64,000 nt of DNA from Pyrinomonadaceae bacterium (GTDB lineage: Bacteria; Acidobacteriota; Blastocatellia; Pyrinomonadales; Pyrinomonadaceae), in contig DASZCS010000012.1 of assembly GCA_035942855.1 (NCBI GenBank), positions 33,198 to 97,197 on the forward strand, read 5' to 3'. Under the pieces are notes generated by a model. That model searched no databases, was not told where the DNA came from, and saw nothing but the letters and a program-made list of their open reading frames with translations. This document shows, one piece after another, positions 8,395 through 17,506 of this stretch (positions within the stretch are counted from its first letter, which is position 1; every line of letters starts with the position of its first letter). The position numbers and the translations under genes are program-made.

Positions 8395-10488
8395 ATGAAG
8401 AGAATCATTCGCCGCGCGCGCAAAAGTTTCGTCGCCCTGCTCGTCCTGGCCTCTCTGTGCTTCGCCAATCTTGGCGGGCTGGCCGCGCGCGGGCAGTCTC
8501 TACAGGATGGGAAACGCGCCGGTGCGGCTAGAAAATCCGGCGCTGCCGTGTCGGGCAAGACGAAAACTCCCGGCCTGCCACTGACGAAATACAACGCGCG
8601 ACTCGAAAAACTCTCGCCCGACTTGGCCGATCAACTCGTCCGCTCCGTTAATCACAAGACACGCTTCCGCGTCATCTGCCGCTTCAACGCTCCGGCCGGG
8701 AGCGGCGTGCAGGAGGTCTACACGCGGCGCGGCGTGCGCGTCAATTACGCCTTTCAGGATTCGAGCTTCGTGAGCGCGGAGATGACCGCGAGGGACGCGC
8801 TTGATTTGACCCGGTTCGGCGAAATCTCCTACATCACGCCCGACCGCGAAGTGCGCACGCTCGGCCACGTCTCGGCGACGACCGGCGCAGACCTTGTGCG
8901 CGCACAGGCCACGGGTGGACTCGACGGCACGGGCATCGGCATCGCCGTGCTCGATTCGGGCATCAAGCGCAGCCACAAATCTTTCCGCGACGGACGCTCG
9001 ACCGATAGCGACGTGCGCGTCGTGGCTGAGAAGGATTTCTCCAACTACGGCAGCGCCGACGACTATTACGGCCACGGCACGCACGTCGCCTCGCTCGTCG
9101 CGGGCAACGGTCGCGTCGCCAGTGCTGCCTACGTCGGCATCGCGCCGAATGCCAACATCGTCAACCTGCGCGTGCTCGACAATGAAGGGCGCGGCTCCGT
9201 CTCGTCAGTCCTGCTCGCGCTCGATTGGGTGATGGCGAATCGCACGCTCTACAACATACGCGTCGTCAATATGAGCCTCGGCATGCCCGCCGTGGATTCT
9301 TACCGAAACGATCCCATCTGTCTCGCCGTCAGGCGTCTGGTTGACGCAGGGGTTGTCGTGGTGACGGCGGCGGGCAACAACGGCAAGACGGACGACGGGC
9401 AGAAAGTTTACGGGCAGATACACTCGCCCGGCATAGAGCCTTCGGCCATCACCGTGGGCGCGTCGAACACCTTCGGCACGAACGAGCGCACAGACGATGC
9501 TGTTGCCTCCTACAGTTCGCGCGGCCCCACGCGCGGCAGCTACGTGGACGCGGCGGGCGTGCGCCATTTCGACAATCTCGTCAAACCCGAACTCGTTGCC
9601 CCCGGCAACAAACTCGTCGGGGCGCAATCAGAGGGCGAGTGTCCCGCGAGCCAGGATGATTGCGGCGCGAAGAATTTCCTGCTCACGCAAAATCCGCAGA
9701 TGGAAGCGCATGTGAGCACGGACGACAGCCGCGCCATGATGTTTATGAGCGGCACTTCGATGGCTGCCCCGCAGGTGGCCGGTGCGGCCGCGCTGCTCCT
9801 GCAAGTCAATCCGCGTCTCACTCCGAATCTGATCAAGACGATCTTGATGTACACGGCGCAGCCCTTGAACAACTTCAACGCGTTCGAGCAGGGCGCGGGC
9901 GGGCTTAACATCGAAGGCGCAGTCCGCCTCGCCAAACTCGTCCGCCGCGACATCGGAAGCGGCTTGCCGCTCGGCGCGCCCCTGCTCACGGGCGCAGCGC
10001 CCACGCCGCGCACGACAATCGCCGGGCACACTTTCGACTGGGCGCAGGGCGTCGTCCTCAGTCACAGCTTCGCTACGGGACTCGACCTCATCACCGAATA
10101 CCAGCGCGTCTACGACCTCGGTGTGATCATCAGCGATGGTGTGATTATCAGCGACGGCGTCATCATCAGCGACGGCGTCATCATCAGTGACGGCCTGCGA
10201 CGAAATCCAGACTTTCTCAGCGACGGCGTGATCATCAGCGACCACATAAGGACGAGCGGCGGCAGTATGCTCGGCGACGGGACGCCTTACGTCGCCGTCG
10301 GCGTGATCATCAGCGACGGCGTGATCATCAGCGATGGGCTGTTGCGCGACGACGGGGTCATTATCAGCGACGGAGTGATTATCAGCGACGTGCTGTTGAA
10401 GTCTCTGGCGACGCTGGCCGACGGCGACCGCACGCGTTATGCACCCGTCGTTGTCGATACGGGCGCAGACTATCGAGGCTATTTCTGA
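8395..10488 (+). CDS. secreted subtilisin-like serine protease (peptidase S8) with a C-terminal GVIISD hexapeptide-repeat region
   Basis: Signal peptide (FVALLVLASLCFANLGG). Catalytic triad motifs: AVLDSGI (Asp), HGTHVASLVAG (His), GTSMAAPQVAGAAALL (Ser). Nine GVIISD units occur between 10120 and 10389. Confidence 0.9.
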   Translation: MKRIIRRARKSFVALLVLASLCFANLGGLAARGQSLQDGKRAGAARKSGAAVSGKTKTPGLPLTKYNARLEKLSPDLADQLVRSVNHKTRFRVICRFNAPAGSGVQEVYTRRGVRVNYAFQDSSFVSAEMTARDALDLTRFGEISYITPDREVRTLGHVSATTGADLVRAQATGGLDGTGIGIAVLDSGIKRSHKSFRDGRSTDSDVRVVAEKDFSNYGSADDYYGHGTHVASLVAGNGRVASAAYVGIAPNANIVNLRVLDNEGRGSVSSVLLALDWVMANRTLYNIRVVNMSLGMPAVDSYRNDPICLAVRRLVDAGVVVVTAAGNNGKTDDGQKVYGQIHSPGIEPSAITVGASNTFGTNERTDDAVASYSSRGPTRGSYVDAAGVRHFDNLVKPELVAPGNKLVGAQSEGECPASQDDCGAKNFLLTQNPQMEAHVSTDDSRAMMFMSGTSMAAPQVAGAAALLLQVNPRLTPNLIKTILMYTAQPLNNFNAFEQGAGGLNIEGAVRLAKLVRRDIGSGLPLGAPLLTGAAPTPRTTIAGHTFDWAQGVVLSHSFATGLDLITEYQRVYDLGVIISDGVIISDGVIISDGVIISDGLRRNPDFLSDGVIISDHIRTSGGSMLGDGTPYVAVGVIISDGVIISDGLLRDDGVIISDGVIISDVLLKSLATLADGDRTRYAPVVVDTGADYRGYF

Positions 10489-10644
10489 CGGCATGAGCGA
10501 CGCATACGCTGACAGAGTCTGCGCCCCCGGCACTCAGGACGTGCGCCCCCGAGATTCGCGTTGATGCGTTCTGCAAACTTGAAGTTGATGCCCTCGTAAG
10601 TTCCGTTAATATTGAAACTCCGATCCCTCGCCCGACATTCAGCC

Positions 10645-11556
10645 ATGTCTCAAACGCTTAACTCCTCACAGACCGCGCCGCCTCGCACGCACGCGCGCAC
10701 CTCGCGCGGAGGCCACATCTCTTCACCGCAACTGCTCGTTCGCGGCCAGGAGGCGGAGGCTCTGAACTTTCTGGCCGTGCGTCCGGTCGAGAACGTCATC
10801 ATGTCGAGCTTGATCCGCGACCACGGGTTCGAGCGCAGTTTGAACCGCGGCGATTTTTACGCGTGCCGCGATGCGAGCGGCGCGCTCACAGGTATCGCCC
10901 TGCTCGGTCATCACATACTTTTTGCGAGCGGGTGCAACGAGACGATCGAGGCGTTCGCGGCGGGAGCGCGCGAGCGTTGCGATGCACACGTCATACTGGG
11001 CGAGAGGGAAGCGGCCGGGCGTTTCTGGTCTGCTTATGCGCGCGCGGGCGAGTTGCCTCCGCTCGTGCAGCGGGAATTGTTGTTGGAGCAGCGTTGGCCT
11101 GTGGCGGTGCGCGAGTTTGTGCCGGGGTTGCGCGCGGCGACGCTCGCGGATTTGCCTGAGGTCGTGGAGGTGCACGCGCAGTTGGCTTGCGAAGAGAGTT
11201 CCGTTAACCCTCTGGAAGTTGACCCGGAAGGTTTTCGCGCGCGACTGGCGCGTCGCATCGAGGCGGGGCGTGTCTGGGTCTGGATCGAGCGCGGGCGTCT
11301 CGTCTTCAAGACGGACATCATTTCCGACACGCCCGAAGTGATCTATCTCGAAGGCGTTTACGTGAACGCGGACGAGCGCGGTAAGGGCTACGGGCTGCGC
11401 TGCCTGTCGCAACTGAGCCGCGAGTTGTTGAGGCGCGCGCATTCGCTCTGTCTGCTCGTCAACGAAACGAACGAGCGGGCGCAACTTTTCTATCGCCGCG
11501 CCGGTTACAAATTGCACAGCCGCTACGACACGATCTATCTCCCGCCGCGAACGTGA
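10645..11556 (+). CDS. GNAT-family N-acetyltransferase (about 300 aa, with an extra N-terminal domain)
   Basis: The C-terminal acetyl-CoA motif region reads VYVNADERGKGYGLRCLSQL..LLVNETNERAQLFYRRAGYKL. ATG at 10645 is preferred over the ORF-track TTG at 10612. Confidence 0.7.
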   Translation: MSQTLNSSQTAPPRTHARTSRGGHISSPQLLVRGQEAEALNFLAVRPVENVIMSSLIRDHGFERSLNRGDFYACRDASGALTGIALLGHHILFASGCNETIEAFAAGARERCDAHVILGEREAAGRFWSAYARAGELPPLVQRELLLEQRWPVAVREFVPGLRAATLADLPEVVEVHAQLACEESSVNPLEVDPEGFRARLARRIEAGRVWVWIERGRLVFKTDIISDTPEVIYLEGVYVNADERGKGYGLRCLSQLSRELLRRAHSLCLLVNETNERAQLFYRRAGYKLHSRYDTIYLPPRT

Positions 11557-14857: not shown

Positions 14858-14969
14858 GTTGAAACCTTTCCCCGATTCATTGCGTTATCAACATTGATCC
14901 GCCTCGCCTTTGTAATTCAACTACAAACGTTTCCCCATCCCTTACTTTGATAATTAAGGAGACCCCAAC

Positions 14970-15170
14970 GTGGAACATCCAGAAAAAGCCAAGACGGAAA
15001 CCTCGCACGACGACACGCCGCAAGGGAGCGAAACACCATTCTTCGCGCGCTTCCTCGAAGGTCAACACGCCGAAGCCAGACCGGCCGGAGCGAATGACGA
15101 AGCCGTTTTCATGACCCTCAAATACCCGTCCGACCGCGACGAGATAGACCGGCCGCTATCTCACGTCTAA
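14970..15170 (+). CDS. mdnA: microviridin-family graspetide precursor peptide (66 aa)
   Basis: GTG start with AAGGAG 8 nt upstream. Leader motif PFFARFL at aa 23-29 (15036-15056). Core TLKYPSDRDE at aa 49-58 (15114-15143) fits the microviridin TxKYPSDx[DE][DE] pattern. It sits directly upstream of two ATP-grasp genes. Confidence 0.85.
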   Translation: MEHPEKAKTETSHDDTPQGSETPFFARFLEGQHAEARPAGANDEAVFMTLKYPSDRDEIDRPLSHV

Positions 15171-15262
15171 CCGACCGGAGCGGCGGGCGCTGGCTCTCGA
15201 TCTTCTGCATTTCAAGAGGCCGGAACGTGCCCGTCGCATCGGACGCCCCGCGTGAGATGTTG

Positions 15263-15382
15263 ATTAAGAGCGTCTAACAAAACTGAGAGTGCAAACACGA
15301 AGCGACGCGAACAGCACGAAGCTTTTGTTCGTGTCATTTCGTGTCGCACGCGTTGTTTCATTGTTTCGTCAGACGCTCTTAA
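15263..15382. repeat. long imperfect palindrome (CACGAA family) between the precursor and ligase genes
   Basis: Perfect outer 12-bp arms TTAAGAGCGTCT (15263-15274) / AGACGCTCTTAA (15371-15382). The inner arms carry three CACGAA/CGCGAA units and three inverted TTCGTG-like units. Confidence 0.7.
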
Positions 15383-15430
15383 CGTCTATCGCGCAACTTC
15401 ACAGAACCTTTCCCGAATCCATATCTTTGT

Positions 15431-16426
15431 ATGCGGGCGAAGCCAGAGCCGGACACAGTTCTGCTGCTCACGCACAGCGGCGATTACTACACGGTGGATC
15501 GCGTCGCCGACGCGCTTCAGCGCCGCGGCGCGAAAACTTTTCGCTTCGACACTGATCGCTTCCCGCGCGAGGTGCGCATCGCCGCGTCTCTCTCCGTTGA
15601 GGGCGCGCTCAGCCACGTCATCGAAGACGGCGCGGCGACGTGCGACGCGACGACGGTGCGCGCGGTCTGGGCGCGCCGGATATGGACGCCGTCATTGGAC
15701 GAAAATCTCGACCCGAAATTTCGGCAGATGTGCCTGCGCGAGAGTGTCGCCGCGCTCGAAGCCTTTCTCGACGGGCTGCACGGAGCGCGCTGGATCAACG
15801 AACGCGGGCGCGAAGAAGAGGCCGGGAACAAACTGCTGCAACTGCGTCTCGCCGCCCGAACGGGCTTGCGCATCCCGCGCACGCTGCTGACAAACGATGC
15901 CGAGCGGGCGCGCGAATTCTTTCGCGCGAACGACGGCGCGCTCGTGGCAAAATTGCTCACGCCCGTCTCCAACGGCATGAACGCGGATTCGGCTTTCGTC
16001 TACACGAACGAAGTCAGCGCACGCGACCTGGAAGACGCGAGCGGACTCCGGCACAGCCCCATGGTGTTTCAGGAGCGCGTGCCGAAATCGCTCGAACTGC
16101 GCGTCGCTTATGTCGCGGGAAAATTCTTCGTCGGCGCGCTCGACGCGAGCGGCAGCATGCGCGGGCGAATCGATTGGCGGCGCGCAACGCCTGAAGAATG
16201 CAGTTGGCGGCGCGACGACATCCCGCCCGAACTCGGGGCGCAACTCACGACATTGATGCGCGAACTGCGACTCGTCTACGGGGCAATAGACATTATCCGC
16301 ACGCCTGAAGGCCAGCACATCTTTCTCGAAGTGAACCCCGGCGGCGAATGGGGCATGCTCGAACGCGACCTCGGACTCCCCATCGCCGACGCAATCGCCG
16401 ACGCGCTCCTCGACCAAAATTTATGA
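15431..16426 (+). CDS. mdnB: ATP-grasp RiPP macrocyclase, MdnB/MvdC-like (the B versus C assignment rests on gene order)
   Basis: N-terminus LLLTHSGDYYTVDRVADALQRRGAKTFRFDTDRFP is paralogous to the next gene. C-terminal ATP-grasp motifs: YGAIDIIRTPEGQHIFLEVNPGGEW. Its stop overlaps the next gene's start (ATGA). Confidence 0.8.
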   Translation: MRAKPEPDTVLLLTHSGDYYTVDRVADALQRRGAKTFRFDTDRFPREVRIAASLSVEGALSHVIEDGAATCDATTVRAVWARRIWTPSLDENLDPKFRQMCLRESVAALEAFLDGLHGARWINERGREEEAGNKLLQLRLAARTGLRIPRTLLTNDAERAREFFRANDGALVAKLLTPVSNGMNADSAFVYTNEVSARDLEDASGLRHSPMVFQERVPKSLELRVAYVAGKFFVGALDASGSMRGRIDWRRATPEECSWRRDDIPPELGAQLTTLMRELRLVYGAIDIIRTPEGQHIFLEVNPGGEWGMLERDLGLPIADAIADALLDQNL

Positions 16427-17412
16427 CCGTCCTCATCATCACTCACAGCCGTGATAACGAGAGCATAAGCCTTGTCGCTGAGGCTATCGAAAGGCGGGGC
16501 GGAAGTTCGTTCTGCTTCGACACGGACAGATTCCCGACAGCGGTTCAACTCGTCGCGCGCTACGGCGAGTTTCCCGAACAACTTTCATTTGCGGACGGCG
16601 GCGCGACGCTCGACCTGCGCGACGTGTCGTCCATCTGGCATCGCCGCCTTGATGTCGGCGGGCGTCTGCCCGACGGGATGGACGCCCAACTCCGTCACGC
16701 CTCGCTCGGCGAATCGCGCGCAACCGTCTTGGGGATGCTGGCGAGCCTCGACGCGTTTCGCATGGACGCCGAGCCTTTGATTCGTCGAGCTGAAAACAAG
16801 CAGTTGCAGATTCGTGTCGCGTGCGAATTGGGACTGGACACGCCGCGCACGCTTACCACCAACGACCCGGCGGCCGTGCGTGCCTTCGCGCGCACCTGCG
16901 AGCAGGGGATGATCGCAAAGATGCTCTCGTCCTTCGCCATCTACGAAGACGGAGCGGAGAAAGTCGTCTTCACCAACCCGGTCACGGCGGAAGACCTGGA
17001 CAACCTCGGCGGGCTGCGGCTCTGCCCGATGACTTTTCAGGAACAAGTCGCGAAGCGTCTGGAACTGCGCGCAACAATCGTCGGCGAGCGCGTGTTCACT
17101 GCCGCGATCGACTCGCAATCGTCAGCACGCGCTACGCACGATTGGCGGCGAGATGGTGAACGGCTGCTACGCGCGTGGCAACCCTACACGCTGCCGCCGG
17201 AGGTGGAAGAAAAATTGCTGCGCCTGATGGACTATTTTCAATTGAACTACGGCGCGGCCGACCTGATCGTGACGCCCGAAGGTCGCCACGTCTTTCTCGA
17301 AGTCAACCCTGCGGGCGAATTCTTCTGGCTCGAACGTCAACCGGGACTGCCCATCTCGGAAGCCATCGCCGATGTACTACTCGGCCGATCAAAGCGCAGG
17401 GAAAAAGGGTAA
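16423..17412 (+). CDS. mdnC: ATP-grasp RiPP macrocyclase, MdnC/MvdD-like
   Basis: ATG at 16423 gives MTVLIITHSRDNESISLVAEAIERRGGSSFCFDTDRFP. Further motifs: CPMTFQEQV and YGAADLIVTPEGRHVFLEVNPAGEFFWLE. The ORF-track start at 16348 only adds an Arg-rich out-of-context extension. Confidence 0.85.
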   Translation: MTVLIITHSRDNESISLVAEAIERRGGSSFCFDTDRFPTAVQLVARYGEFPEQLSFADGGATLDLRDVSSIWHRRLDVGGRLPDGMDAQLRHASLGESRATVLGMLASLDAFRMDAEPLIRRAENKQLQIRVACELGLDTPRTLTTNDPAAVRAFARTCEQGMIAKMLSSFAIYEDGAEKVVFTNPVTAEDLDNLGGLRLCPMTFQEQVAKRLELRATIVGERVFTAAIDSQSSARATHDWRRDGERLLRAWQPYTLPPEVEEKLLRLMDYFQLNYGAADLIVTPEGRHVFLEVNPAGEFFWLERQPGLPISEAIADVLLGRSKRREKG

Positions 17413-17419
17413 AGAAGAA

Positions 17420-17506
17420 GGGGAAAGAGAAAGGGGTAAAGGTAAAAGGTGAAGACAAAAAGGCTCTGGCTTTTCGTCATCCACCTTGCCCCTTACCCTT
17501 TTCCCC
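17420..17506. repeat. imperfect purine-rich palindrome between convergent genes; probable bidirectional terminator
   Basis: GGGGAAAGAGAAAGGGGTAAAGGTAAAAGGTGAAGACAAAAAGG pairs imperfectly with CTTTTCGTCATCCACCTTGCCCCTTACCCTTTTCCCC. The central stem is GACAAAAAG / CTTTTCGTC. Confidence 0.6.

Follow-up and report, generated by a model that had tools for sequence, protein, structure and literature searches.

A microviridin-type precursor gene followed by two ATP-grasp ligase genes

The window, a stretch of 64,000 nucleotides from a Pyrinomonadaceae-type acidobacterial genome, contains a cassette of three genes, encoding a precursor peptide, an MdnB/MvdC-type ligase and an MdnC/MvdD-type ligase, in the order known from mdnABC. 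The following features were recognised:

14956..14961, forward strand: Shine-Dalgarno sequence AAGGAG, 8 nt upstream of the precursor GTG
14970..15170, forward strand: precursor gene, mdnA/mvdE-type, microviridin/marinostatin family (PF12559 and NF033738 matches)
15036..15056, forward strand: leader motif PFFARFL, residues 23-29 (from the sequence; role from PMC7823629, PMC8939145)
15093..15113, forward strand: pre-core motif NDEAVFM, residues 42-48 (N-D-E-A-x-[FI]-[MQ] in the clade), candidate recognition or cleavage region
15114..15143, forward strand: core TLKYPSDRDE, T49-E58, fitting the published motif, with links predicted by homology
15144..15170, forward strand: tail (follower) IDRPLSHV, I59-V66, and TAA stop; variable in relatives
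15171..15430, forward strand: spacer of 260 nt that separates the precursor gene from the first ligase gene and contains a long, strong hairpin
15431..16426, forward strand: MdnB/MvdC-type ATP-grasp ligase, predicted to be lactam-forming (TIGR04185, 5IG8)
16423..17412, forward strand: MdnC/MvdD-type ATP-grasp ligase, predicted to close the two lactones (TIGR04184, 5IG9)

The precursor ORF starts with GTG, encodes 66 amino acids and reads MEHPEKAKTETSHDDTPQGSETPFFARFLEGQHAEARPAGANDEAVFMTLKYPSDRDEIDRPLSHV. Its start position agrees with that of its relatives (MKQQEK.../MKDQEK...), the codon of Thr49 begins at base 15114 and the TAA stop occupies bases 15168-15170. Re-translation reproduced exactly the coordinates and residue numbers of a first-pass annotation of this DNA (Arg56, Asp57, Asp60 and the tail IDRPLSHV), including the eight residues that it had placed after the core. 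The leader motif PFFARFL is exact in the precursor and invariant or near-invariant among the relatives, and this helix is part of the leader bound by the ATP-grasp ligases (PMC7823629, PMC8939145).

Searches with family models gave 34.5 bits for Pfam PF12559 (curated cut-off 21) and 41.7 bits for NCBIfam NF033738, the microviridin/marinostatin family (curated cut-off 26), and the precursor is the sole match to this family in the 5.6-Mb genome. A collection of 5.8 billion proteins yielded 683 homologues at E <= 0.01, many of them, in Pyrinomonadaceae or Acidobacteriota MAGs, already carrying the family name given by NCBI. Since the family cut-offs are passed, two ligase genes follow and 683 homologues exist, the ORF is not a chance frame. 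Judged from its sequence, it is a bona fide group-1 graspetide (microviridin/marinostatin) gene in a Pyrinomonadaceae-type acidobacterial genome.

The product of the first ligase gene scored 435.2 bits against the MvdC equivalog model TIGR04185 (cut-off 425). Its best solved relative was 5IG8 (2.8e-102), presumably MdnB, the lactam-forming enzyme, whereas 5IG9 gave only 2.5e-53. The second ligase gene, whose start overlaps the stop of the preceding one in ATGA, reached 478.8 bits against the MvdD equivalog model TIGR04184 (cut-off 475), with the match beginning at residue 28 of a longer ORF. Here the best solved relative was 5IG9 (1.7e-111), which is MdnC, the lactone-forming enzyme (PMC7823629). 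The trio of precursor and two ligases is present in the loci of 12 relatives, and in the window it is not flanked by an ABC transporter, a C39 peptidase or any other tailoring gene. In a genome of another genus (G127; L026, G127:C6, 8527-9457) the mvdC orthologue was matched as two adjacent tblastn pieces, which suggests a frameshift and hence a pseudogene or an assembly error.

The spacer between precursor and first ligase gene has a folding energy of -105.4 kcal/mol (z = -5.3 against 200 shuffles) and two weak terminator-like sites at 15314-15352. Its hairpin may set or tune the ratio of precursor to enzyme transcripts. Downstream of the cassette, between the convergent mvdD and an exonuclease-like gene, a GA-rich stretch (GGGTAAAGG...) is followed by its TC-rich complement (CCCTTACCC) at 17413-17505; this pair is probably a bidirectional terminator, and related sequence persists where the cassette is missing in two congeners. 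Some other Pyrinomonadaceae loci (L054, L061, L104; for example G015:C33 and G001:C4) encode a second, much longer precursor of about 155-177 amino acids upstream of the short one, in which an insert rich in Lys and Ala separates the leader from the first of two cores and the C-terminal tail is basic (...LKKKK).

Genomic surroundings and loss of the cassette in congeners

Three further genes lie upstream of the cassette:

8395-10488: S8 subtilase
10612-11556: GNAT, 314 amino acids
11783-14857: TPR/sigma-54 activator (EBP)

This upstream block and the cassette are syntenic in the other genus represented by G127 and in the congener G047, and the trio occupies other contexts in other genera. Two congeners, G094 and G129, have no match to the precursor family; in both, the S8-GNAT-EBP block is directly followed by the exonuclease-like gene, a gene for an ATP-grasp-like protein of 418 amino acids and a gene for a protein of 306 amino acids. 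At the cassette site G129 (L038) has a clean gap of 136 nt. The corresponding gap in G094 (L037, G094:C48, 11026-11313) reads ...LEQRPGLSISEATADVLLERTKRRGKG*, a remnant of the 27 terminal codons of MvdD in which 20 of 27 residues are identical to residues 303-329 of the window's MvdD (nt 17329-17412). This relic indicates that the site ancestrally carried the cassette, which a deletion of about 2.4 kb (window 14930-17329) then removed.

The S8 protease, the GNAT and the sigma-54 activator were considered as dedicated parts of the cluster, in the roles of protease target, N-acetyltransferase and regulator respectively, and rejected, because the block is intact in G094 and G129 where the cassette is missing; they are therefore backbone genes, and a looser regulatory or functional link to the cassette is possible. 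The S8 subtilase, whose C-terminal region has many GVIISD hexapeptide repeats, is conserved at 62-82% identity in relatives, whether or not they carry the microviridin cassette.

Distribution of the core TLKYPSDRDE

The motif that defines microviridin precursors is TxKxPSDx(D/E)(D/E) (PMC12848669), and residues T49-L-K-Y-P-S-D-R-D-E58 match it. The first-pass annotation had pointed out, correctly, that Asp57 stands where classical cyanobacterial cores have the Glu that accepts the Ser ester and Arg56 where those cores have Trp, and it had called the core non-canonical on this basis. Since DRDE fits the published motif, this oddity holds only in comparison with classical cyanobacterial microviridins.

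The best 120 of the 683 relatives come mostly from Pyrinomonadaceae MAGs and have 183 cores, every one of which reads [TS]LKYPSDRDE (171 with T and 12 with S), so that the link-forming residues (T/S, K, S, D, D, E) are invariant throughout. When 1.84 billion cluster representatives were scanned without a profile, 86 relatives with 216 cores were returned, a sample biased towards the query, in which the cores ended in DE (153), ED (50), DD (9) or EE (4) and position 8 was most often R (62), followed by S (28), N (28), D (20) and G (20), with W in 2. In a species-level genome collection 73 DRDE cores were found, in MAGs of Pyrinomonadaceae, of Blastocatellia and of further Acidobacteriota; Sorangium sp. 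So ce726, a myxobacterium in culture, has a DRDE core too (TLKYPSDRDEYVTLKYPSDGDEDLAVK). Within the Pyrinomonadaceae the precursor occurs in 17 of 151 genomes and 11 of 60 genera, always with Asp at core position 9, position 8 being R, L, S, N, G, K, F, D, W or V.

Such endings were already on record. The supplement of Makarova 2022 (PMC8939145) contains PSDSDE 35 times, PSDGDE 39 times, PSDNDE 9 times and PSDRDE once, together with PSDWEE (9) and PSDWED (16). It includes TLKYPSDRDE in the Hyalangium minutum precursor KFE66376 (...TLKYPSDGDEHYTLKYPSDRDEYCY) and a tailed precursor, ...FATMRYPSDSDEDGFNFPV, with the core FATMRYPSDSDE. DRDE-type cores with tails are thus catalogued and, with 183 of 183 cores of this type in the relatives above, cannot be regarded as an exception. 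Based on these sequence counts, D-x-D-E is a dominant or major ending of microviridin-family cores outside cyanobacteria. The exact string YPSDRDE gave no main-text match and one supplement match in the literature searched, where no chemically characterised or isolated product with a DRDE core was found either. When acidobacterial microviridins were sought in the literature, a lichen atlas was found to assign its microviridin clusters to Nostoc only.

The region preceding the core and the C-terminal tail

The residues NDEAVFM in front of the core had been described as giving no obvious leader-cleavage signal. However, in the clade they belong to a longer conserved motif, A-A-N-D-E-A-x-[FI]-[MQ], and in 57 single-core relatives the individual positions were conserved as N (45), D (55), E (49), A (55), F/I (53) and M/Q (48). 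A leader recognition signal therefore probably exists before the core. Second cores in relatives are preceded by AP(T)xA(G/A)PSR[MR]. The precursor has no double-glycine (GG) motif, as is usual for class I precursors, and the cassette has no C39 peptidase, the genome's only C39 domain being on another contig; processing of the leader by a GG/C39 system was rejected on these grounds. The first leader peptidase known for class I precursors is an unlinked M1 protease, reported in 2026 (PMC13039773).

The tail behaves differently from the core. In the window's own clade, recognised by the pre-core motif NDEA, mean pairwise identity was 1.0 for the core, 0.68 for the spacer between leader and core, 0.55 for the N-terminus and 0.35 for the tail, which is the least conserved segment. 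Among the best 120 of the 683 relatives, tails following the last core are 2-19 residues long; the precursors of some relatives terminate at ...DRDEID or ...DRDEWD. In 63 of the same 120 relatives two cores are joined by a linker of about 21 amino acids, and some relatives' precursors have three cores; the two cores and their linker imply that cleavage behind a core has to take place in this lineage.

The start of the tail is more constant than the rest. In the 183 cores of the best 120 relatives, the first residue after the core (+1) is I in 61% and D or W in others, with I, W and V together accounting for 75%; the second (+2) is D in 76%, and an acidic residue is found at +1 or +2 in 174 of the 183. 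This last figure hints at a function of the tail start that our preferred model leaves unexplained. The hydrophobic residue at +1 parallels the terminal aromatic residue of classical microviridins, by which analogy Ile59, and perhaps Asp60 too, may be part of the mature peptide.

A second Pyrinomonadaceae clade (species-level loci L052-L092) has single-core DRDE precursors with a tail of 13-16 residues, IDQR[LIF][ED]Y.SGNN. In that clade the tail is conserved to the same degree as the leader, in contrast to the far more variable tail of the window's own clade, and tails are therefore not always free to drift.

Comparison with known systems

Classical class I microviridins (B/J/K; MdnA-MdnB-MdnC, MvdE-MvdC-MvdD) share with the window's cassette the PFFARFL leader, a single core of the form T-x-K-Y-P-S-D-x-acid-acid, two paralogous ATP-grasp ligases and the gene order, and like it they lack a GG motif and an in-cluster protease. 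However, their cores end in D-W-E-E/D instead of D-R-D-E, with Glu rather than Asp taking the Ser ester, and they finish with a single aromatic residue where the window's precursor has an eight-residue follower, so that the classical ending ...KYPSDWE(E/D)[YW] is absent from it. The mdnA-E clusters also encode a dedicated GNAT (MdnD/MvdB) and an ABC transporter (MdnE/MvdA), neither of which is in the window's cassette, and their host is a cyanobacterium rather than an acidobacterium.

The core FATMRYPSDSDE, which we take to be the sequence of marinostatin from marine proteobacteria, has the same D-x-D-E ending as the window's core; its Ser ester reportedly goes to Asp (Ser8-Asp11), and the precursor with this core also has a C-terminal tail (...DSDEDGFNFPV). 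In contrast to the window, with its Lys51 and MdnB-type ligase, marinostatin has Arg in place of Lys, no lactam and a single ligase, and it is associated with the absence of MdnB (PMC7823629).

The myxomiditides resemble the window's precursor in the cage motif TxKxPSDx(D/E)(D/E) at their C-terminus, their Ser-Asp lactone matches the one predicted here, and their follower is dispensable, but they carry two further KxxE lactams towards the N-terminus and use four ligases (PMC12848669), whereas the cassette has two ligases and its precursor no KxxE. The identical 10-mer TLKYPSDRDE occurs in class II multi-core or myxobacterial precursors (Hyalangium minutum KFE66376; Sorangium sp. So ce726). Class II precursors have several cores, as do many Pyrinomonadaceae relatives with their two or three, whereas the window's precursor has one; their GG separators and C39 transporter are lacking in the multi-core relatives. 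The single-core precursor of the window thus does not display the traits of classes II and III (several cores or a long N-extended core, GG, C39 transporter).

Proposed product and alternative explanations

We consider it likely that the minimal cassette makes a tricyclic cage with the links Thr49-Asp55, Ser54-Asp57 and Lys51-Glu58, with Leu50 at P1 and with the variable tail outside the cage. This topology is inferred from the invariance of all six linking residues in the relatives. The PFFARFL leader helix would dock on the ligases, the MdnC/MvdD-type enzyme would close the Thr49-Asp55 lactone first and the Ser54-Asp57 lactone second, and the MdnB/MvdC-type enzyme would then form the Lys51-Glu58 lactam on the bicyclic intermediate, the same order of ring closure, lactones before lactam, as described in a review (PMC7823629). 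Unlinked proteases would finally cleave off the leader and, probably, the greater part of the tail; IDRPLSHV might be cut back, perhaps to Ile59 or Ile59-Asp60, or else persist as a tolerated appendage. With Asp57 as acceptor of the Ser ester, the ring would be one methylene smaller than the classical one, and on this predicted link we agree with the first-pass annotation. The smaller Ser-to-Asp lactone is not new, because it has been shown in the myxomiditides, in which NMR and MS/MS placed a Ser14-Asp17 lactone, a lactone of Thr9 and a lactam of Lys11, and modification does not require the follower CYIW (PMC12848669).

Specificity is set by P1, the residue that stands between the Thr of the ester and the Lys of the amide; Leu and Val variants inhibit elastase and subtilisin (PMC7823629), and myxomiditide A inhibits elastase but not trypsin (PMC12848669). 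With Leu50 at P1, the product of the cassette should, by analogy, be an inhibitor of serine proteases of the elastase, chymotrypsin or subtilisin type rather than of the trypsin type.

It is conceivable, though on the whole doubtful, that the canonical tricyclic cage is formed and that the mature peptide retains the whole tail or a minimum of Ile59-Asp60, which would aid binding or specificity and define a tailed subtype. The preferences at +1 and +2 and the conserved tail of the second Pyrinomonadaceae clade agree with this, but beyond +2 the residues of the window's own clade are highly variable (identity 0.35, lengths 2-8), precursors ending at ...DRDEID or ...DRDEWD exist, and the tail of the precursor with the core FATMRYPSDSDE is said to be absent from natural marinostatin, which reportedly has 12 residues. 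Classical microviridins, for their part, do retain one hydrophobic residue past the last acidic one (...EE[YW]; Makarova 2022 supplement, PMC8939145). The first-pass annotation had gone further and suggested Asp60 as an additional or alternative acceptor, for instance with Lys51-Asp60 replacing Lys51-Glu58 or with a fourth ring, which would give a topology unlike that of microviridins. Although acidic residues are frequent at +1 or +2 and ligases of this group show some plasticity (PMC12848669), we regard such a link as extremely unlikely: the three nucleophiles (T49, K51, S54) are already matched by three invariant acceptors (D55, D57, E58), which leaves none to spare within the core, and Ser64 is the only other downstream hydroxyl or amine, with S, T or K present in the tails of just 56 of 120 relatives. 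Moreover, Asp is missing at +2 from 24% of the cores, and DRDE cores where the next core starts two residues further on (DRDEYVT, DRDEVVT, DRDEAQT) do not have it.

A bicyclic, marinostatin-like product with two esters and no lactam would be in keeping with the shared D-x-D-E ending. However, Lys51 is invariant here where marinostatin has Arg, the cassette has an intact MdnB/MvdC-type ligase that passes its equivalog cut-off, and marinostatin-type products are tied to the absence of MdnB (PMC7823629), which makes a bicyclic product very unlikely. The cassette is evidently dispensable, as two congeners lack it and one of them keeps only the 3' remnant of mvdD, and the mvdC orthologue of G127 looks split; yet the three ORFs of the window are intact, with a ribosome-binding site and translational coupling through ATGA, and the core is invariant across many species, so that we attach hardly any probability to a decaying, non-functional relic. 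The tricyclic cage with Leu at P1 remains our preferred product.

Significance

The D-x-D-E ending, the Ser-Asp lactone and the follower peptide were known already, and what is new is one more representative of the family. The relevance of the locus lies chiefly in natural-product cataloguing, and the understanding of the family is unchanged by it. What the comparison documents is that D-x-D-E with a follower, and not the textbook DWEE, is the prevalent form of the microviridin family outside cyanobacteria, and that one exact 10-mer, TLKYPSDRDE, is fixed across many species of soil Acidobacteriota. It seems improbable to us that the DRDE peptides of the Pyrinomonadaceae form a distinct tailed microviridin subtype, directed at one protease target and with the follower partly or wholly kept. 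If they did, their charge and shape would be unlike those of the characterised microviridins, and the invariance of the 10-mer, which extends to the non-linking residues Leu, Tyr and Arg, together with the semi-conserved I/W-D pair would represent an adaptation to that target. The first chemical characterisation of a product from this clade would fill a gap and probably provide an elastase- or subtilisin-directed inhibitor scaffold.
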